Made by a program: the position numbers and the translations under genes. From IMG/VR virus record IMGVR_UViG_2675903313_000009: 64,000 nt of DNA. One strand, 5' to 3'. This document shows, piece by piece, positions 31,979 to 63,199 of this stretch (the first letter of the stretch is position 1; each line of letters opens with the position of its first letter). The DNA is from a virus (Duplodnaviria; Heunggongvirae; Uroviricota; Caudoviricetes). The notes beneath the pieces were generated by a model. That model searched no databases and had not been told where the DNA came from. It worked only from the letters and a program-made list of their open reading frames with translations.

Positions 31979-32190
31979 TGGCATTAACACTGGCAGGTCT
32001 GGAAATCGAGAAAACAAGCGGCTACTGGCGTGCTAAGGGTTTCAAGCAGCCTGGCATTCTTGAGCGTCTGGAACGTGAAGATGGGTATATCGTCCACCAG
32101 CGGCGTGAATGGCGTATGTACGATCCAGAAACAGGAAAACTGACTACAAAAGCCGGAACACTTTGGGGTCTGTTAAAGAAAATACACTAA
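31978..32190 (+). CDS. hypothetical small protein
   Basis: 70 aa ORF, start overlaps the previous stop. Confidence 0.4.
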   Translation: MALTLAGLEIEKTSGYWRAKGFKQPGILERLEREDGYIVHQRREWRMYDPETGKLTTKAGTLWGLLKKIH

Positions 32191-32237
32191 ATGCAAACTG
32201 ACTGCGGCTCGTTCCGCAGTCATATTTCATAGTCGTC

Positions 32238-32770
32238 ACCGCTGACAGCATACACAATCAACTACCGCTGATAGCATATCGAGAGTCTATATCACCGCTC
32301 ACAGCATACTTTACTCGATTTTTTACCGCTGGCAGCATACTTAAGACATTGCATGAATAATGTGTACCGGTATGGGTATAACCAGAACAAAATTACCGCT
32401 GGCAGCATACGAAGGTCTGACATATACCATTAATTACCGCTGATAGCATATCCAAACAAAAATTCCTCAATAAAACACCGCTGACAGCATACGTTCTATC
32501 AGGGAGCAGCAGGCAATAAATGCCTTTCACTACAAGCAATCAGCGCAATAGCAATAGAATGTTAGTGAGCGCAAACCTATATGGAATGCACTCTTCGAGG
32601 TTAGTAACCACTGGGGAGGTATGACAGAGCATTGAGTGGTGATAGATGATTTACCGCTCACAGCATACGTTTATCTCACTATACCGCTGGTAGCATATCT
32701 TTAACCGTTCACAGCATACTTTTCAGAAAAATAGCCGCTGATAGCATACATTTCACCGCTGACAGCATAT
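32238..32770 (+). repeat. iteron array downstream of repA (incA-like copy-control locus), 12 copies
   Basis: 16-bp direct repeats ACCGCT(G/C)NYAGCATAY at 32238, 32264, 32294, 32325, 32395, 32436, 32477, 32653, 32683, 32704, 32734, 32755. Confidence 0.8.
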
Positions 32771-33864
32771 CAAAGCAGTTTGAGACTATTGGAAAGGATC
32801 TCAATCATCTTGATATTTTCAGGCGTCAAATTCTGCGAAAGTTCGGTTATCTTGTTGATAATGTTCTGTTTGGCATCAATTTCCCCAGCTTTCTCATCTG
32901 GTTTTTTGGGTTCGATGTCTTCAGGTTTTGGCGGTGCGACTTTGAGTTTTGGATTGCGGCTGTGAATCTGGATATAGATCGACCGCCCTCGCTTAATCTC
33001 GCTGTATTCGAGATAGCCCAAATCTTGGAGAGCTTTTAAGCCGTTACGTATAGTCTGATTCTGCGAGCTGACATTCCTGCTACTCAAATTGAGTCGCGCA
33101 CGTAATCGAGCAAGCGATACCGGCGCAGGCTTGGTTGGAAGACTTTCGATGAAGGTGTACAGAGCCTGTGCTGTTTCTTTGCGTGGTAGCTTATTGATAA
33201 CCTTTAACTGCAAAAGAACCTTATGGTCAAAGCGATATAGTTCGGCCAGCTTCGGTTCTGCATAGAACACCACCGTATCTTTCTGCTCGTTGTAGTCCAC
33301 GCTATTGATGAGGTGCACCATCAGAAGCGAGATCTTGTTAGAGCCGTCGACATTCTTTTCTTCATACGTTCTCTGAAAAGACAGAGTTGTACGCATGATC
33401 TTCAAAAGACTGTTTGTAAGCCGGTCGCGGAGTGTTTTGCGGATCTGTGACGATGGATAGCCACAAAACTTCGCAAATTTCGTGATGCTTAACTCGACAC
33501 GACCGTTAGGTTCGCCGTATTCTGCCAGCGAACGCACAACGCCCACCCACGTTTTGAAATCATGATCCATGTCGAGACGAGGACCGGTTATCTTGATATC
33601 GGAATAACCTTCAGAACGGGCTACTTCGAGCTGAACAAGCTCCTTTGAAGCATCGATCTCATTTGGCTTATTACGCTTGCTGTATTTTGTCCCCTTGAGC
33701 GTGGGCACGAACAACCCCAGCCGCATCAACGCAATTGGTTGGACTGTATTGTTGCTATTAGGGACAAGTTCCCCTGTGTACAATTCAAGGGAACCTTCTT
33801 CAAAGTTGTCGAGATTATCTTCTACTTCTTTGTTATTTTTACCTTTTTTATTTTTTGTGGACAT
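32770..33864 (-). CDS. repA: iteron-binding replication initiator (RepA/Rep3-like)
   Basis: 364 aa basic protein flanked on both sides by iterons; ATG at 33864 preceded by aaagg; ORF open to 33984. Confidence 0.7.
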   Translation of the reverse strand: MSTKNKKGKNNKEVEDNLDNFEEGSLELYTGELVPNSNNTVQPIALMRLGLFVPTLKGTKYSKRNKPNEIDASKELVQLEVARSEGYSDIKITGPRLDMDHDFKTWVGVVRSLAEYGEPNGRVELSITKFAKFCGYPSSQIRKTLRDRLTNSLLKIMRTTLSFQRTYEEKNVDGSNKISLLMVHLINSVDYNEQKDTVVFYAEPKLAELYRFDHKVLLQLKVINKLPRKETAQALYTFIESLPTKPAPVSLARLRARLNLSSRNVSSQNQTIRNGLKALQDLGYLEYSEIKRGRSIYIQIHSRNPKLKVAPPKPEDIEPKKPDEKAGEIDAKQNIINKITELSQNLTPENIKMIEILSNSLKLL

Positions 33865-33884
33865 GTGGACACCTTTGTCATTCA

Positions 33885-33986
33885 ACCGCTGACAGCATAC
33901 TTGATTTGCCGCTGGCAGCATACCAAAAACAGTTGGCAGCATACGGCGAACCGTTGACAGACTATCAATTACCGCTGGTAGCATAC
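33885..33986. repeat. origin-proximal iterons (incC-like), 3 intact plus 2 degenerate
   Basis: accgctgacagcatac, gccgctggcagcatac, accgctggtagcatac plus partial copies, immediately upstream of repA. Confidence 0.75.
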
Positions 33987-34025
33987 ATGAACATGGCTTC
34001 AGACCAGTCGTGGCGCGGCTTACAG

Positions 34026-34099
34026 CGATCGGGGATCTTATTTGATCTATACAAGGATCTATCTATGGATCTCTTTATTAGGATCTATCCTGTGGATAT
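34026..34099. promoter_or_regulatory. GATC cluster plus DnaA-box-like site (plasmid origin core)
   Basis: six GATC sites within 60 bp (repeated GGATCT units) followed by TGTGGATAT. Confidence 0.6.
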
Positions 34100-34185
34100 G
34101 TGAATAATTAAAACAGGCATTTACTACCTTCGGCGCACCTGGTGGGTTATCGTTGCCTCGGCTAACAATCACAGAAAAATGACAT

Positions 34186-34839
34186 ATGGATCTAAAACGC
34201 ACGCGCTGGGTTCGTCGTCTTGAAGACGGCTCCTACACTATCGAATCAAATTCCAACCTGAATAAGCAGAAGTTGCTTTGTGACATCTGCGGTATAGCGG
34301 CGAAGTGCCCGATCTACGAAACCAGAATTAAACTTGATAAGGCTGGTGTGAATTTTCATTTAAACAGTTGCATCAGGTACGTTCCATTGCTCGCATTTCG
34401 TAAACCGATCATCGGATTGGATGCCCCCTACTTCAACACACTCCGTTCAGGTGTGACGTGGCGAGATCGTTTATCACCAGACAAGCTGATTTGCCTTGTA
34501 TCCGCAGACACAGGGAAAATCATCCGTTTTGGGAAAGTAGACAAGGTTTACTCAGGTCCAGTAGACGAAATGTTGCGAAAACACAGCCGGTTTAATCATC
34601 TCTGTATGGGGGGTGAGAAAATCGAGAAGGTAGAAGAAGTGATCCGCAAATCCTACGGACACTTCCTAACCAAAGATAGCCTGCTCACCGCAATCTACAT
34701 CAGACATGTAAAACGTGAGTTCGACCTCGAATACCACAGTGAAGAAGAGCTTAACCTTGTTGACCCACGTCCAAAAGCTGGCGTCATAAGCATAAACGCA
34801 GCGCGTAACGCGCGTAAAAAGCCCTCCGACACGATTTAA
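34186..34839 (+). CDS. hypothetical protein
   Basis: 217-codon ORF next to the origin; no recognisable motif. Confidence 0.5.
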   Translation: MDLKRTRWVRRLEDGSYTIESNSNLNKQKLLCDICGIAAKCPIYETRIKLDKAGVNFHLNSCIRYVPLLAFRKPIIGLDAPYFNTLRSGVTWRDRLSPDKLICLVSADTGKIIRFGKVDKVYSGPVDEMLRKHSRFNHLCMGGEKIEKVEEVIRKSYGHFLTKDSLLTAIYIRHVKREFDLEYHSEEELNLVDPRPKAGVISINAARNARKKPSDTI

Positions 34840-35244: not shown

Positions 35245-35565
35245 TGATAATCAATCCTTTTTCAATTTGGAAAATTCCTCTTATACGGTAATTGTTGATA
35301 ATAAAAATATCAAATGATACATGACCCATGAGATAGTTCATTCATATGTAACGATGAGACTTTTGCCTACCATATACATCTAAGCACTTCAATGAAACTC
35401 TAGCCGCCTTGTAAGCAATCCATTCAACAATTTTGGTAGGTATTCACTTACCTATTTATTTTGTAATACTATGCCTGTTGATGTTCTTCTGTGCCGTGCT
35501 GTGTTGGTTGCTCACCTCTCGAGCAAGCTTAAGATTTGTATCAAATAACCACAAAGGAAAAACAC

Positions 35566-36651
35566 ATGACTTTGCCATACGGCGTCATTTCTGACTGCCA
35601 CTACCACAAATGGGATGCGTTCTCCACGACGAACGCTGAGGGGCTTAACTCCAGACTTGAAATACAGTTGGAAGCAACGAAAGAAGCAGCCATCGCCATG
35701 AAGAAGGCCGGTTGTAAGTACATGTTGGTTGCCGGTGATACATTTCACGTCCGAGGAACTGTGTCCCCTTCTGTTTTGCATTACGTAACTGAAACGTACA
35801 AGTGGATTATCAACGAGCTTGATCTGACAGTAGTAATGCTGGCCGGTAATCACGATCTTGAAACCAACGATTCATTATATAGCGCCAACGCAGCAGCATC
35901 GCTGAGTTCTATCGGCGTGGTAATCGTATGTGGCAAGCGCCCACACTCAATAAAAATTGGTGATGTGACTGTCCACCTGATTAGCTGGCGTAACAATCAT
36001 GCAGAGCTTATCAGCGATCTGAAAGCATTACGTAAGAGCGTAGAAGGTGATAATCATGATGTTGTTATCCATACATCCATTAACAAAGCCATTCCAACAA
36101 TGCCTGACGTCGGTATCGATGCGCAGGAGTTAAAGGATATCGGCTTTCGTCTCGTGCTTAGTGGGCATTACCACAACCATAAAGAGGTCATTCCTGGAGT
36201 TATCAGTGTCGGTGCGCTGACCCATCAAAATTGGGGAGATGTTGGATCTCTGGCTGGTTACATGATCGTAAACCCGGACGGCAGTTTCAGTCACTACGAA
36301 ACCAGTGCGCCTAAATTCATTAACCTGGAAGATTATGTTGCCGATGACCAAATTCGCGGCAACTACGTGCGTTTCCGCGCCGTAATTGAGAACGATGAAG
36401 AAGGCATTAAGTACCAGAACATCCTCAAAACAATGGGTGCAAAAGGTGTCGTGTGCAACTTCATCCGTAAGTCATCAATGATGGAAGGGACAGCAAGCAC
36501 AACGGAAACCAGCAAAATCGATAGCCTGGGAGAGTCGGTATCTGCTTATTGCAAGATTGTCCACGATACTGACGGCGGATTTGATCTAAGCAAGTTGGAT
36601 ATTTTGTGTCAGGAAATCCTCACCGAAGCGGAGAGTTCGGAGGCTGTGTGA
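35566..36651 (+). CDS. Mre11/SbcD-like nuclease
   Basis: metallophosphatase motifs DCHYHKW, GDTFH, AGNHD, SGHYH; start context aaaggaaaaacacATG. Confidence 0.85.
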   Translation: MTLPYGVISDCHYHKWDAFSTTNAEGLNSRLEIQLEATKEAAIAMKKAGCKYMLVAGDTFHVRGTVSPSVLHYVTETYKWIINELDLTVVMLAGNHDLETNDSLYSANAAASLSSIGVVIVCGKRPHSIKIGDVTVHLISWRNNHAELISDLKALRKSVEGDNHDVVIHTSINKAIPTMPDVGIDAQELKDIGFRLVLSGHYHNHKEVIPGVISVGALTHQNWGDVGSLAGYMIVNPDGSFSHYETSAPKFINLEDYVADDQIRGNYVRFRAVIENDEEGIKYQNILKTMGAKGVVCNFIRKSSMMEGTASTTETSKIDSLGESVSAYCKIVHDTDGGFDLSKLDILCQEILTEAESSEAV

Positions 36652-36692
36652 GGCAAAGTCGTTATGGGAGCTTTCGAGACTTTGCCATCACG

Positions 36693-36884
36693 ATGAAAAG
36701 ACTTGAACGAGGCCAGACGGTGATGTTTCACAAGCCCTACCCGCCACAAGGAAATCCCGTAGCGTTTTATCTTGGAAGGTTAACCAGAAAAGGCGTATTG
36801 AGGCGCAGATCCTTCCCGGCGCATACGGAGTTCAGATTGAAAGAAGGTCAAAAGCTAACACACGGTATCAAAGGTGTTATATGA
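36693..36884 (+). CDS. hypothetical small basic protein (uncertain)
   Basis: ORF between sbcD-like and sbcC-like genes; start assignment uncertain. Confidence 0.3.
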   Translation: MKRLERGQTVMFHKPYPPQGNPVAFYLGRLTRKGVLRRRSFPAHTEFRLKEGQKLTHGIKGVI

Positions 36885-38797
36885 AGTTTTTAAAGCTCCA
36901 GGTTGAGAATTTTATGGCTATCGCCAGCGCGGAGGTCGAGTTAGATCAGCGTGGTTTAGTGCTCATTCAGGGTGTTAATAGTGATGATAGTTCCGCATCA
37001 AGTAATGGCTCTGGAAAGTCAACGCTAATGAATAGCCTGATGTGGTGTCTTTATGGCGAAACAGCTCATGGTGTGAAGGGTGACGATGTGTTGTCTACCG
37101 ACCATGAAAAGAACTGTCGTGTTGCAGTAACCATCGAGGATGAAGGCAAGAGATATGCGATCATTCGTCACCGTAAACACAAAGAGTTCAAAAATCGGCT
37201 TATCGTTCGTGGTGAAGACGGCGATATGACGAAAGGCAAAGATGCGCTGACGCAAGAGTTCGTCGAGCGTCTGATCGGTGCATCTAAAGAGGTTTTCATG
37301 GCTTCCATCTATGCGAGCCAAGAAGCTATGCCAGATTTACCTGGAATGTCCGACAAAAACCTCAAAACCATCGTAGAAGAAGCCGCTGGCGTTGACAGAC
37401 TGACACGCGCCTACGCTATTGCTCGTGAGCGAGCTAATGCAGCTGCCGCACGTATGGATGTGGTTAAAACCAAATTGGAGTCGACAATCTCGACCATTGA
37501 GGCAACACAGTCAGAAATTGAGTCAGCGAAAGCCTCCTCTGAATCATGGGAGCAAGAGCGTTCTAAACGTTATGACGATGCCCTGGCTGGGCTGGCCAGT
37601 GCCGAAGTTGAGTTAACGGAAGTTGAACTTGAGATCCGCACTCTTCCCGAACAGATCCGTGATACCGAGAAGGCAATCGAAAGTGAGCGCAAAAAGTTAG
37701 CCTCAAAAGAAGAACATGACGCCAAGTTGCTCAAAGTTCGTGGTGCGATAACTGATATTCGGGCAAGCATCAAAGCTACAGAAAATAGTCAGGCTGATGC
37801 AATGAACCGCGCGCGTAATTTTAAGACCAAAGCAGAAGAGGTTGGTACTAAAGTGGGATCACCATGCCCTACTTGTGGCAAAGCCTACTGCGAAGAAGAT
37901 CTATCAACGGTGAAGGAGAATTTCATTGAACAAGCACGTCAGGAAATTGGTCAGGCGAAGACACTTGCAGAGGCAATGGCTAAACACAAAACGAATCTTG
38001 AGAAAGCGTTAAGCATTGAGTCTGCCCTTGTTAAAACGACACCTGATGTAACGGCTATCATTGCCCGGATTGAAGAGCTTACGAAACAACTCTCATCTTT
38101 GCGTCATCGTGAGAAGGAGGTTGTTGCTATTGAGTCTCTTGTGACTCGTGCTCGTACTGAGGTCGATCGTATATCAAAAGAGATTAATCCGTTTATTGCT
38201 CTTATCGCCAGACACGAAGATAACCTGGTATCCAGTAAGTCTACCTTCAAGTCCTTAAAAGATGAGTTGAAGGCTATTCAGGAACAAACGTTGCTATTGG
38301 AAAAAGCTCGTCAGGTCTACTCTCCTGCCGGGGTGCGTTCTCATATTTTGACGTCTGTTACGCCTTTCCTGAATACACGCACTGCCGAGTATCTCAATAC
38401 GTTGTCTGACGGGAATATTACTGCTGAGTGGTCGACGATGGATGTCACTAAAAAAGGTGAGTATCGCGACAAATTCAACATTAGTGTGCAGAAGAAAGGT
38501 TCAAGTAAGTCGTTCCAGACCCTCTCTGGTGGTGAGAAGCGGAAGGTTCGCATTGCGTGTTCTTTGGCATTGCAGGATCTGGTTAGCAACCGGGCGAGTA
38601 AAAACATCGATTTGTTTATCGGCGACGAAATTGACGATGCACTCGATACAGCCGGTCTTGAACGCCTCATGGGTATTCTGGAGTCCAAAGCTCGCGAGCG
38701 AGGTACTGTGCTGATTATCTCCCATAAAGAGATGAAGTCATGGTTCCGGGAAACTATTACGCTGGAAGTTAAAGAGGGGCGCAGCTATGTCGTTTAA
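36881..38797 (+). CDS. Rad50/SbcC-like ATPase
   Basis: Walker A GSGKST, long coiled-coil with CxxC zinc hook (CPTCGKAYC), ABC signature LSGGEKRK, Walker B LFIGDEIDD. Confidence 0.9.
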   Translation: MKFLKLQVENFMAIASAEVELDQRGLVLIQGVNSDDSSASSNGSGKSTLMNSLMWCLYGETAHGVKGDDVLSTDHEKNCRVAVTIEDEGKRYAIIRHRKHKEFKNRLIVRGEDGDMTKGKDALTQEFVERLIGASKEVFMASIYASQEAMPDLPGMSDKNLKTIVEEAAGVDRLTRAYAIARERANAAAARMDVVKTKLESTISTIEATQSEIESAKASSESWEQERSKRYDDALAGLASAEVELTEVELEIRTLPEQIRDTEKAIESERKKLASKEEHDAKLLKVRGAITDIRASIKATENSQADAMNRARNFKTKAEEVGTKVGSPCPTCGKAYCEEDLSTVKENFIEQARQEIGQAKTLAEAMAKHKTNLEKALSIESALVKTTPDVTAIIARIEELTKQLSSLRHREKEVVAIESLVTRARTEVDRISKEINPFIALIARHEDNLVSSKSTFKSLKDELKAIQEQTLLLEKARQVYSPAGVRSHILTSVTPFLNTRTAEYLNTLSDGNITAEWSTMDVTKKGEYRDKFNISVQKKGSSKSFQTLSGGEKRKVRIACSLALQDLVSNRASKNIDLFIGDEIDDALDTAGLERLMGILESKARERGTVLIISHKEMKSWFRETITLEVKEGRSYVV

Positions 38798-49702: not shown

Positions 49703-50296
49703 ATGATTGCAGCCGAAAAAATCAAACAGCGAAAGCGCGACAACTCTCTTCGTGACCTCTGGAGAACACCTGACTGGCTGTTTTCTGCCATTCAACGTTA
49801 TCTTGGAGTGACATTTGATGTTGACGTTGCCTGCAACAAGGACAATGCAAAGCTGCCTAATTTCATAGGCGTTGAGCGTGATGCTTTGAAATCTGAATGG
49901 GGACAGCCAGGTACAATTGCCTTCCTCAATCCACCCTACTCCAAAATCTACCCCTGGATTGATGCGGCTATACGTGAGCAGGCTCGCGGAGTTACAACAG
50001 TGATGCTAATTCCTCAATCCCTAGATACAAAGTGGTATGAGCGTGCAACAGAGTGTGCGAATGAGACGATTATTCTGTCTGGTGGCCGCGTAGCGTTTGT
50101 CGAACCTGACGTAAATCTGGGTCAGGTAGAAGTAAACATCAACCCAGGTGGCAGTATGCTCGTTGTTTTTCGAGGATTCTGTCAGGACGCTGGGCACTCT
50201 ATAAGCAAGATCCCTTTGGACGTCATGAAAAGTCTGGGAGGGTATGATCATGCGAATGTGATCAGGAAAAAAAGACCATCAAAGAAGGCTGCTTAG
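49703..50296 (+). CDS. phage-type DNA N6-adenine methyltransferase (Dam-like)
   Basis: catalytic motif FLNPPYS; about 197 aa. Confidence 0.75.
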   Translation: MIAAEKIKQRKRDNSLRDLWRTPDWLFSAIQRYLGVTFDVDVACNKDNAKLPNFIGVERDALKSEWGQPGTIAFLNPPYSKIYPWIDAAIREQARGVTTVMLIPQSLDTKWYERATECANETIILSGGRVAFVEPDVNLGQVEVNINPGGSMLVVFRGFCQDAGHSISKIPLDVMKSLGGYDHANVIRKKRPSKKAA

Positions 50297-61671: not shown

Positions 61672-62061
61672 ATGGGCTTCCCTTCTCCTGCGGCGGATTA
61701 TGCTGAGAGCCGTATTTCTCTTGATCAGCAGATAATTAGACATCCTTCAGCGACCTACTTCATGAGGGCAGCTGATAGTCATCATCGTGAGGGAATATTA
61801 CAGGGTGCATTGCTGGTGGTCGATTCCTCACTTACCCCGGTTGATGGTTCTCTGCTTGTATGCGCTCTGGATGGGGAATATCGCGTAAAAAGATACCGGA
61901 AGTATCCACGTCAGCATCTGGAGGATTTAAGAACCGGTAAGAAGGAAGCATTGCCAAAGGATGACGATGGATGCACGGGCAGCAATGCCGTGTTTGGTGT
62001 GATCACTCACATTATCAACGACGCAAGAAGTGGCGAGTTTGATGATTGTCCCGTGATGTAG
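61672..62061 (+). CDS. UmuD'-like (pre-truncated UmuD/S24 peptidase family) protein
   Basis: starts GFPSPAADY (the UmuD' N-terminus), then HPSATYF, DS(H), DGEYRVK and VFGVITHI parallel UmuD; no N-terminal cleavage region. Confidence 0.75.
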   Translation: MGFPSPAADYAESRISLDQQIIRHPSATYFMRAADSHHREGILQGALLVVDSSLTPVDGSLLVCALDGEYRVKRYRKYPRQHLEDLRTGKKEALPKDDDGCTGSNAVFGVITHIINDARSGEFDDCPVM

Positions 62062-62098: not shown

Positions 62099-63199
62099 TC
62101 ACACTGCGCGGAATGCGATTTCGCCAGGTATTACTTCACCTTGCCAATACATTTGGGCAGCAACGCGATCTGCGAGGTCACGATAAATAGCCGTAAATTC
62201 GCTATCTGGACGACTAATAACGGTTGGTGTTCCGTTATCCAGATCTTCACGAAGTGAGATATGAAGTGGCATTTGGCCTAACAACTGCGTGTTGTATTTC
62301 TCGGCCAGTTTCTCTGCGCCACCGGTGCCGAAAATTGGCTCGTGATGACCGCAGTTACTGCAAATATGCACACTCATGTTTTCGACGATACCCAGTACCG
62401 GCACTTCGACTTTTTCGAACATCACAATGCCTTTCTTCGCATCGATCAGCGCGATGTCTTGCGGCGTAGTTACCACAACAGCACCAGTTACAGGAATGTT
62501 CTGCGCCAGCGTCAACTGAATATCACCAGTGCCCGGCGGCATATCGAGAACAAGATAGTCCAGATCAGGCCATAGAGTTTCCTGCAACATCTGCATCAGC
62601 GCCTTGCTGGCCATCGGTCCACGCCACACCATTGCATTGTCGTCGGTGACCAGATAACCAATAGAGTTGGTTGCCAGGCCATGAGACATGATAGGTGCCA
62701 TGTGAGTACCGTCAGGTGAGGTTGGACGTTGGTTTTCCGCGCCCAGCATGGTTGGAATTGATGGACCATAGATATCGGCATCCAAAATACCAACTTTCGC
62801 ACCTTCAGCAGCCAACGCCAGTGCCAGGTTTACCGCCGTGGAGGATTTACCCACGCCGCCCTTGCCTGAGCTGACGGCGATAATGTTCTTAACGCCATTA
62901 ATGCCTGGTTGGTTTTTGACACGCTTAAGCGTGGCAATGTTGTACGACAGCTTCCAGTCAATAGCCTTTGCGCCAGTGATACGGAGCAGATCACCACTAC
63001 ATTGCTCTTTCAGGTCTTCAAAAGGCTTATTCCACACGAAAGGCATGATTAGTTCGACATGCAGTGTGTCATCCATCAACGCAACATGGTGTAACGCTTT
63101 AAGCGTAGTCAGGTTGTGTTTCAGGGTTGGGTGCTGAAAATTAGCCAGCGTACCGGCTACCATTGCTCTCAGGGCATCCGGCGATTTGGACTCGCTCAT
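62099..63199 (-). CDS. apbC: Fe-S cluster carrier ATPase ApbC/Mrp
   Basis: 366 aa; deviant Walker A SSGKGGVGKSS and CSNCGHHEP motif; near-identical to enterobacterial Mrp as recalled. Confidence 0.95.
   Translation of the reverse strand: MSESKSPDALRAMVAGTLANFQHPTLKHNLTTLKALHHVALMDDTLHVELIMPFVWNKPFEDLKEQCSGDLLRITGAKAIDWKLSYNIATLKRVKNQPGINGVKNIIAVSSGKGGVGKSSTAVNLALALAAEGAKVGILDADIYGPSIPTMLGAENQRPTSPDGTHMAPIMSHGLATNSIGYLVTDDNAMVWRGPMASKALMQMLQETLWPDLDYLVLDMPPGTGDIQLTLAQNIPVTGAVVVTTPQDIALIDAKKGIVMFEKVEVPVLGIVENMSVHICSNCGHHEPIFGTGGAEKLAEKYNTQLLGQMPLHISLREDLDNGTPTVISRPDSEFTAIYRDLADRVAAQMYWQGEVIPGEIAFRAV

Follow-up and report, generated by a model that had tools for sequence, protein, structure and literature searches.

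The segment spanning positions 32199-34107 of the window (the whole 64,000-nucleotide stretch of DNA that was analysed) is very probably the plasmid-prophage maintenance replicon of an Escherichia coli SSU5-like phage-plasmid, an iteron-controlled theta replicon of the P1 oriR/RepFIB family. An earlier note on this DNA had pointed to a P1-like layout, and DnaA boxes, GATC repeats, five iterons at 21-bp phasing, repA and a control array do indeed match the P1 record K02380 feature by feature. Judged from the alignments the resemblance to P1 is one of homology; the nearest relatives, however, are the IncFIB (RepFIB) replicons, and the control array is unlike incA in both copy number and orientation. 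The replicon is thus already known, an ordinary member of the P1/RepFIB type.

The element and its replicon type

The window matches plasmid pEC881_2 at 99% and phage PhiR41_1 at 98%, and more than 120 near-identical records are found in PLSDB. The replicon itself exhibits 98.6% identity over 2151 nt to that of p09EL50 (NC_018651.1), 98.6-98.9% to NZ_MW590712 and NZ_MK125035, and 98.6-99.3% at the nucleotide level when p09EL50 and more than 100 other plasmids are taken together. Plasmids pECOH89 and p09EL50 encode identical RepA proteins (PMC3999498), MW590712.1 has been described as highly similar to plasmids typed as IncFIB(H89-PhagePlasmid) (PMC12838234), and the SSU5-group phage-plasmids have been typed as IncFIB (PMC7969092). 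By sequence identity we assign the replicon to IncFIB(H89-PhagePlasmid), the type also carried by pECOH89 and p09EL50, for which the published descriptions are at typing level only.

Phage replication genes adjoin the replicon, and the element codes for its own large replication machinery, including DnaE, a DnaB-like helicase and a primase; its relative pEC881_2 bears phage structural genes. The setting is that of a siphovirus-type phage-plasmid, whereas the classical RepFIB replicons reside on conjugative F-like plasmids. In P1 the parA-parB-parS region lies directly downstream of incA; here no parAB genes are found beside the array, which is followed by small converging ORFs with no assigned function. 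The array is bordered on its outer side by a GC-rich hairpin with a 9-bp stem (32199..32222), terminator-like on both strands, which marks the boundary between the replicon and the converging upstream ORFs.

The initiator protein

The repA-like gene recognized previously at 32770-33864 is a real ORF on the minus strand (33864 to 32770) of 364 codons. A profile search with its product gave a replication initiator: the match to Pfam Rep3_N (WH1; residues 118-239) has an E value of 3.9e-9 and 37.5 bits, above the cut-off of 22.4, and that to PHROG 775 an E value of 4.6e-133. It belongs to the Rep_3 superfamily (PF01051) and to the P1 RepA/RepFIB RepA family of initiators, and is predicted to bind the iterons. 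Against P1 RepA, tblastn reveals 43.5% identity over 278 amino acids (E value 2e-64), and against SSU5 RepA 48%; protein alignment gives 45-53% identity to the P1, SSU5 and FIB proteins and 86% to the Klebsiella protein. The closest characterised RepA proteins are those of RepFIB (F, P307, pO157 and Klebsiella IncFIB(K)), at 51-53% identity. Homologues occur in at least 5000 plasmid records, of which the FIB-type proteins are about 50% identical and annotated as RepFIB or RepB family. The core comprises residues ~30-310; relative to P1 RepA there are about 30 extra residues at the N-terminus and 55 at the C-terminus, and this tail (310-364), absent from P1, contains a motif in common with the RepFIB proteins.

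Other searches, among them those bearing on the two winged-helix domains (WH1 and WH2) of the solved RepE and pi structures, were less informative. RepA has no match in NCBIfam, PDB sequence searches with the protein and with an 8-sequence profile returned nothing relevant, and hhalign of the family alignment against RepE of F gave a probability of 3%. NC_002483 was used in place of AP001918. A single-sequence AlphaFold2 model has a mean pLDDT of 39, too low for a fold search. The identity of the protein is nonetheless settled, because of its 45% identity to P1 RepA. Comparison with the Klebsiella orthologue yields a pN of 0.086 and a pS of 0.79 (saturated); repA is under strong purifying selection. 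The start codon mapped here also corrects a recurrent over-long annotation of RepA.

Origin and control array

The iteron pattern CCGCTSNYAGCATAY, allowing up to two mismatches, has 19 matches in the 64-kb window where ~1.9 are expected; in 100 shuffles the mean was 1.88 ± 1.22 and the maximum 6, so that none reached 19. Upstream of repA the earlier note had counted about four copies. Iterons are present there, but there are five phased positions (33886, 33909, 33930, 33951 and 33972; phasing 23/21/21/21 bp), of which three are good copies and two, at 33930 and 33951, are degenerate, with three mismatches to the 14-nt core. On the repA strand these incC-like origin iterons (33886..33985) read TATGCTGNCAGCGGT and lie at -121, -100, -79, -58 and -35 from the ATG, the spacings being 21, 21, 21 and 23 bp and the second and third copies the degenerate ones. 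The five origin iterons of P1 are spaced by 21, 21, 21 and 22 bp, with the promoter inside them (K02380). Klebsiella IncpKPHS1 has the same iteron at the same five origin positions, and in the relative L004 all of these copies are intact.

Downstream of repA the 12-copy array is confirmed, at 32239-32770. It has the same repeat sequence as the origin iterons, and all 12 matches to CCGCTSNYAGCATAY are on the plus strand, 11 of them exact and one with a single mismatch. The incA-like proximal cluster of five (32654..32770, minus strand) begins on the last bases of the gene, its first iteron overlapping the stop codon, with spacings of 21/30/21/30 bp. Beyond an iteron-free spacer of 161 bp (32493..32653), which has no convincing ORF, follows a distal cluster of seven in the same orientation (32239..32492; spacings 41/41/70/31/30/26 bp). 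A search of Rfam over 32000-34300, spacer included, found no RNA even at a permissive threshold. As in P1, the control array thus starts from the stop codon; in every family member examined it begins +1 to +3 past this codon or, in the FIB(K) locus L007, 7 nt before it. In RepFIB, too, rep lies between upstream origin iterons and a two-part downstream control array (PMC11983097), and two-part arrays are also present in Klebsiella L004, SSU5 and the FIB loci.

All 17 iterons flanking repA, five in the origin and 12 in the array, have the same orientation, as do the 14 iterons of Klebsiella L004. P1 incA, in contrast, has nine control iterons, three direct and six inverted, and the downstream arrays of RepFIB are likewise of mixed orientation. 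Mixed or inverted control iterons are a trait of P1 and FIB, not a requirement of the mechanism; the all-direct arrangement does mean that the geometry of pairing may differ. The number of control iterons varies also, with 12 here and nine each in PhiR41_1, which is without the three outermost copies, and in the Klebsiella pKPHS1-type array. The pKPHS1 paper reported only four downstream iterons and a RepA without a known domain (PMC6735626).

The iteron is unrelated in detail to that of P1 (TATGCTGNCAGCGGT here, GATGTGTGCTGGAGGGAAA in P1) and differs from the ATAAGCTGTAG-type iteron of RepFIB. As far as the compared sequences indicate it is lineage-specific, being common to the Klebsiella pKPHS1-type phage-plasmids and unlike those of P1, SSU5/pLF82 and classical FIB replicons, and should therefore define incompatibility specificity. 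An inverted iteron-like 19-mer within repA (33509-33527) was considered as a functional RepA site or RNA-pairing partner and rejected as probably due to chance: nine of 300 shuffles yielded such a pair, its synonymous sites are not conserved in Klebsiella, and it would lie outside the mRNA as judged by the position of the P1 promoter.

Beyond the origin iterons, the six GATC sites within 60 bp described earlier are indeed there (34027-34085, 59 bp; spacings 7, 10, 12, 12 and 14), and form the densest 60-bp cluster of the window. When its 267 GATC sites were placed at random, six in 60 bp were reached in only two of 2000 trials. The sites occur in short (A/G)GATCC-type repeats 7-14 bp apart in an AT-rich region (34024..34090, minus strand), which is likely to be the region of opening and SeqA sequestration; it aligns at the nucleotide level with the Dam sites of P1 at 751-801 and with other family origins. 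Outside it are two adjoining DnaA boxes (34091..34107, minus strand), where a single DnaA-box-like sequence had been noted. That sequence, TGTGGATAT at 34091-34099, is present and agrees with the DnaA box consensus at 8/9 positions; the overlooked neighbour, TTATTCACA at 34099-34107 on the minus strand, is a full match to TTATNCACA. Read on that strand, TTATTCACA (34107-34099) is followed by ATATCCACA (34099-34091), with one base in common and zero and one mismatch to TTATNCACA, respectively. Single matches to the DnaA box are not enriched in the window as a whole (68 found, 64 expected), and the significance of these two comes from their position and their conservation in relatives, not from the match count: their counterparts in the alignments are the tandem DnaA site annotated in P1 (K02380 729-746) and boxes of the FIB, Klebsiella and JK004 origins.

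A GC-rich spacer (..GCCGCGCCACGACTGG..; 33988..34023, minus strand) separates the GATC repeats from the iterons; in the alignment nearly every base of it recurs in P1, Klebsiella L004 and JK004, and its conservation in the FIB origins is partial. Over the whole origin core, aligned for eight replicons, 93 of 121 nt (77%) are identical to P1 oriR, and the similarity takes in the tandem DnaA boxes as well as the GATC repeats and the GCCGCGCCACG spacer; shuffled sequences matched at 68 positions on average and at no more than 77. RepFIB has the same origin core. At the inner end, two DnaA-box-like octamers (GTGTCCACA and ATGTCCACA, 7/9 each; 33856..33872, minus strand) straddle the start codon of repA, which unlike that of P1 lies within this pair. 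In the alignment they fall opposite the inner DnaA-box region of P1 and JK004, and the Klebsiella copy, GTATCCACA, scores 8/9; they might tentatively be taken as inner DnaA boxes.

Proposed mode of replication and copy control

The steps that follow are modelled on the characterised relatives P1 and RepFIB. RepA monomers would occupy the five origin iterons and, acting with host DnaA bound to the flanking boxes, open the AT-rich region of GATC repeats for loading of the host helicase. Firing would depend on these repeats being methylated, and passage of the fork would leave them hemimethylated and subject to sequestration by SeqA, blocking immediate re-initiation. RepA bound at the origin iterons would also repress its own promoter, presumed to lie within them. 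Each iteron holds the -10-like hexamer TATGCT, and a scan for consensus sigma-70 promoters found none among the iterons on the repA strand; autorepression is therefore proposed by analogy with the position of the promoter in P1. The twelve downstream iterons would keep the element at roughly one copy per chromosome through RepA-mediated handcuffing with the origin iterons, both in cis and from one sister copy to the other, and would absorb RepA as well. The handcuffing and the dependence on DnaA and Dam that the earlier note predicted are a reasonable transfer from P1 and RepFIB. Mini-F (ori2/repE/incC, RepFIA) follows the same logic, with a Rep_3 initiator, origin and downstream control iterons, and handcuffing (PMC11983097). 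It differs in that RepE has no significant direct sequence similarity to RepA (hhalign, 3%) and in its origin core; the present replicon also has no inverted-repeat operator.

The array might instead lower copy number only by titrating free RepA, without pairing with the origin. With twelve additional sites of high quality, as against three good ones in the origin, it would make an effective sink, and sequence alone does not discriminate between the two modes. We nevertheless think pure titration unlikely. In P1 the pairing of origin and incA has been demonstrated directly, which counts against a sink only. In the homologous FIB replicons, where the upstream iterons are part of the origin, the downstream block alone displaces and cures the plasmid and increased translation of Rep brings no rise in copy number, findings that the authors read as handcuffing (PMC11983097).

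Two further readings would deny the replicon a role in maintenance, or its array one in control. The element could be maintained from another origin, for instance one that relies on the DnaE, DnaB-like helicase and primase which the element encodes, with the present locus a relic whose repeats are decaying; the two degenerate origin iterons and that large machinery would fit. This is very improbable, given the purifying selection on repA and the conservation of the iterons, whose cores are identical at 62 of 70 positions as against 35 of 55 for spacers and leader. Moreover, the control array is full length and colinear in 120 of 124 PLSDB records (E. coli, Shigella, E. albertii and E. fergusonii), the replicon is the only one typed by MOB-suite on pEC881_2, and the same module is kept across the SSU5, Klebsiella and Cronobacter phage-plasmids. 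That the 12-copy array is a centromere or a phage regulatory operator array, rather than a Rep control locus, we consider hardly credible. Direct-repeat arrays beside plasmid core genes can be centromeres, and parS of P1 lies a few kb downstream, but these repeats have the sequence of the origin iterons and begin at the repA stop codon exactly like incA and the E-K repeats of FIB; no par genes adjoin them, the ParB-domain genes of the relative pEC881_2 being ~45 kb away. RepA-mediated control of the origin by the array is the reading we retain.

The element also encodes a Dam-family methyltransferase (PF05869; 49703-50296), so that a need for host Dam is less certain for the complete element than for a cloned mini-replicon. 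A combination of a P1-type, GATC-gated origin with this enzyme could let the element supply its own origin methylation, a proposal that we regard as doubtful; by analogy with P1, a function confined to the lytic cycle is more likely for the methyltransferase. The phage methylase of P1 is not known to support plasmid replication in lysogens. Should the enzyme methylate GATC and be produced while the element exists as a plasmid, the element itself would partly determine origin firing and SeqA sequestration, it could be maintained even where the host has little Dam activity or none, and the variable size of the all-direct array (12 or nine copies) would tune copy number.

The replicon opens no new biological question. 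Its map, comprising iterons, control array, repA start and origin core, is of modest practical value: it would help in the design of cassettes that act on SSU5-like phage-plasmids by curing or by incompatibility, and CTX-M-15 is carried by some of these elements (PMC3999498, PMC12838234). We predict that the E. coli H89-type and Klebsiella pKPHS1-type elements would be mutually exclusive, and that both would be compatible with P1, with pLF82/SSU5-type and with classical FIB plasmids.

RepA and its start codon

The initiator gene of the replicon is a 364-aa open reading frame on the minus strand, running from an ATG at 33864 to a stop codon at 32770. The HMM search that the earlier note had proposed for this protein returned an initiator profile, RepA lying above the gathering threshold of Pfam Rep3_N (E 3.9e-9); it also matches PHROG 775 (E 4.6e-133). 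By tblastn it is 43.5% identical over 278 residues to RepA of P1 and P7 (E 2e-64), 48% to that of SSU5, and 85-87% to those of Klebsiella phage-plasmids. Homologues occur in at least 5000 records of the plasmid collection, the FIB-type ones being about 50% identical and annotated as RepFIB or RepB family. In an eight-sequence RepA alignment, the identities to the window protein are 86% (Klebsiella pKPHS1-type), 51-53% (FIB proteins of E. coli, Salmonella and Klebsiella), 47% (SSU5) and 45% (P1). Comparison of repA with its Klebsiella orthologue (pN 0.086; pS 0.79, synonymous sites being saturated) indicates strong purifying selection. No direct link to solved Rep structures was obtained by PDB sequence searches, hhalign to RepE or a single-sequence model. 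Compared with P1 RepA, the window protein is extended at the N- and C-termini; its C-terminal tail (residues 310-364; window 32770-32934) ends in an amphipathic helix, LTPENIKMIEILSNSLKLL, and has an L-x-E-x-L..LE.L pattern common to FIB, FIB(K) and SSU5 and absent from P1 and Cronobacter phage JK004.

RefSeq/PGAP gives RepA as 404-405 aa (WP_024180339; Klebsiella WP_014342073), in a longer frame that crosses the five origin iterons (33865-33984) and is open there because of their 21-bp period. The true start is likely the ATG at 33864, since an AAAGG Shine-Dalgarno sequence lies 7 nt upstream, the N-terminus MSTKNKK is conserved in Klebsiella, and RepA of phage PhiR41_1 is annotated at 364 aa. 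The longer annotation seems to be a systematic over-extension that affects more than 100 records.

Iterons and the origin core

The repeat described in the earlier note is real: the window contains 19 matches to CCGCTSNYAGCATAY (up to two mismatches) where 1.9 are expected, a number reached in none of 100 shuffles. Seventeen belong to the replicon, all in the same orientation, and their consensus on the repA strand, (G/A)TATGCT-(G/A)(T/C)(C/G)-AGCGGT, consists of a variable triplet between two invariant halves. The twelve copies claimed downstream of repA are all present, in a proximal cluster of five (32654-32770), the first of which overlaps the repA stop codon, and a distal cluster of seven (32239-32492), separated by a 161-bp spacer without iterons. 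Upstream, where about four copies had been claimed, the location stands and the number becomes five, at positions -121, -100, -79, -58 and -35 from the repA ATG (spacings of 21, 21, 21 and 23 bp); iterons 2 and 3 are degenerate, with three mismatches each to the 14-nt core. A 19-mer within repA (33509-33527) matches the reverse complement of origin iteron 3 and its spacer (33934-33952) at 18 of 19 positions, probably by chance, as 9 of 300 shuffles did equally well and the synonymous sites are not conserved in the Klebsiella orthologue.

Outside the origin iterons lie six GATC sites in 59 bp (34027-34085), as the earlier note had counted to within a base pair. No other stretch of the window holds them as densely, and only 2 of 2000 random placements reach this density. 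Beside it are two adjoining DnaA boxes, not the single box-like site first noticed, both on the minus strand: TTATTCACA (34107-34099), a full match to TTATNCACA, and ATATCCACA (34099-34091), matching at 8 of 9 positions.

In the annotated P1 record K02380 the DnaA site (729-746), Dam sites (751-801), five incC repeats (846-949, with the repA -35 and -10 inside), repA (1006-1866) and incA (from 1866) follow the same order as in the window, read in repA orientation, and much of the sequence is common to both: TTATTCACATATCCACAGGATAGATCC...AGATCC...AGATCCCCGATCGCTGTAAGCCGCGCCACGACTGG. Global alignment of the two 121-nt origin cores gives 93 identities; shuffled P1 averages 68 and never exceeds 77. 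Together with the RepA homology, these results support the P1-like reading, and at the nucleotide level the window origin is homologous to P1 oriR, beyond a mere likeness of layout. The core can also be aligned in Klebsiella, JK004, SSU5, two FIB plasmids and an IncFIB(K) plasmid. Two TGTCCACA octamers, one on each side of the window repA ATG, align with P1's inner DnaA-box region. P1 differs in having nine control iterons, three direct and six inverted, whereas the twelve of the window are all direct and in two parts; FIB control arrays are mixed in orientation. No parAB operon was found after the control array among the ORFs of the window and the annotated relative.

Replication control and neighbouring genes

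The P1 replicon requires Dam and DnaA and is bound by SeqA; deletion of incA raises its copy number, which is held down by handcuffing. With the parts and their homology established, we infer their working from P1 and RepFIB. RepA monomers would bind the five origin iterons, and RepA together with DnaA at the flanking boxes would open the AT-rich GATC-repeat region. Firing would need fully methylated GATC sites, which after replication, when hemimethylated, would be sequestered. RepA on the origin iterons would repress repA, and the downstream array would hold copy number down through RepA-mediated pairing with the origin and titration of RepA. The roles of both iteron blocks have been tested in FIB replicons: the upstream one belongs to the origin, the downstream one is enough by itself to displace the plasmid, and copy number does not go up when more Rep is translated (PMC11983097). 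A consensus promoter scan did not find a repA promoter.

The element with this GATC-rich origin also encodes a phage-type N6-adenine methyltransferase (49703-50296, plus strand; Pfam PF05869 Dam, E 2.9e-38; TIGR01712). Provided that GATC is the target of this methyltransferase and that its gene is expressed in the plasmid state, the whole element might escape dependence on host Dam; a cloned mini-replicon would still report it.

A 217-aa ORF (34186-34839, plus strand; phrog_2105) with several Cys residues begins 79 bp past the DnaA boxes, is transcribed away from the origin, and has no Pfam or NCBIfam match. The corresponding position in SSU5 (SSU5_070) and in the Klebsiella relative is taken by a 645-bp hypothetical ORF, and the 217-aa product could be a replicon accessory. 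Beyond it (35536-38797, plus strand) two genes encode a 371-aa SbcD-like metallophosphoesterase and a 638-aa ATPase of the SbcC/AAA type, annotated in relatives as exonuclease and double-strand-break repair ATPase. Cargo unusual for a phage, and common to Cyrano and PhiR41_1, comprises a HumD/UmuD-like protein (61672-62061) and, on the minus strand at 62099-63199, a full-length equivalog of the ApbC iron-sulfur carrier; in relatives it extends to a methionyl-tRNA synthetase encoded just beyond the window end (64000).

Relatives and divergence of the replicon

The architecture of this replicon family has been textbook matter since the 1980s, and the replicon type is already in routine plasmid typing. 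The 2.15-kb replicon region shares 99.3% identity with E. coli plasmid pEC881_2 and with over 100 further non-mobilizable plasmids, each about 110 kb, found in E. coli, Shigella and E. albertii; its identity to PhiR41_1 is 98.4%. Annotated relatives bear the tail, capsid, portal and terminase genes of SSU5-group phage-plasmids, their own replication genes (DnaE, helicase, primase, RecA-like protein, RNase H), ribonucleotide reductase and thymidylate synthase. IncFIB is the replicon type of the SSU5 group (PMC7969092). pECOH89 and p09EL50 have an identical RepA, which shares 48% identity with its pLF82 counterpart (PMC3999498); p09EL50 is 98.6% identical to the window. The type recorded for such plasmids is IncFIB(H89-PhagePlasmid), with MW590712 named as highly similar (PMC12838234); MW590712 is 98.6% identical to the downstream array. 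The only published iteron description found for the lineage reports four downstream copies, without a recognisable RepA domain (PMC6735626); the present map is fuller, but what it describes is of a familiar kind.

In 120 of 124 PLSDB records the 651-bp array region is kept at full length and colinear, at 95-99.7% identity. PhiR41_1 (L009 20140-20583) has nine control iterons instead of twelve, a deletion of 87 bp, bounded by the repeats at window 32239 and 32326, having removed the three outermost, and so provides a natural variant usable for control-iteron dosage. Nine copies lie downstream in the Klebsiella relative. The array starts +1 to +3 after the repA stop codon in all members examined except the FIB(K) locus, where it starts 7 nt before it. 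The 21-bp phasing of five origin iterons is kept in the window, the Klebsiella relative, P1 and JK004; at the SSU5, FIB and FIB(K) loci the mapping picked out only three to six recognisable origin iterons, some at other spacings.

Iteron sequences differ by lineage around a common CTG..AG.G skeleton: TATGCTGTCAGCGG in the window and Klebsiella, TATCCACTGTAGTG in SSU5, ATAAGCTGTAG in FIB and ATGTGTGCTGGAGGG in P1. The core that contacts host factors is thus conserved and the initiator-iteron pair has diverged, as expected in a family whose members need mutual compatibility. E. coli and Klebsiella agree at 62 of 70 positions in the iteron cores, against 35 of 55 in the spacers and leader. The H89-type (33886-33985) and pKPHS1-type (L004 1380-1480) replicons have the same iteron sequence and positions despite the pS of 0.79, and from these shared iterons we predict that the two would be cross-incompatible.
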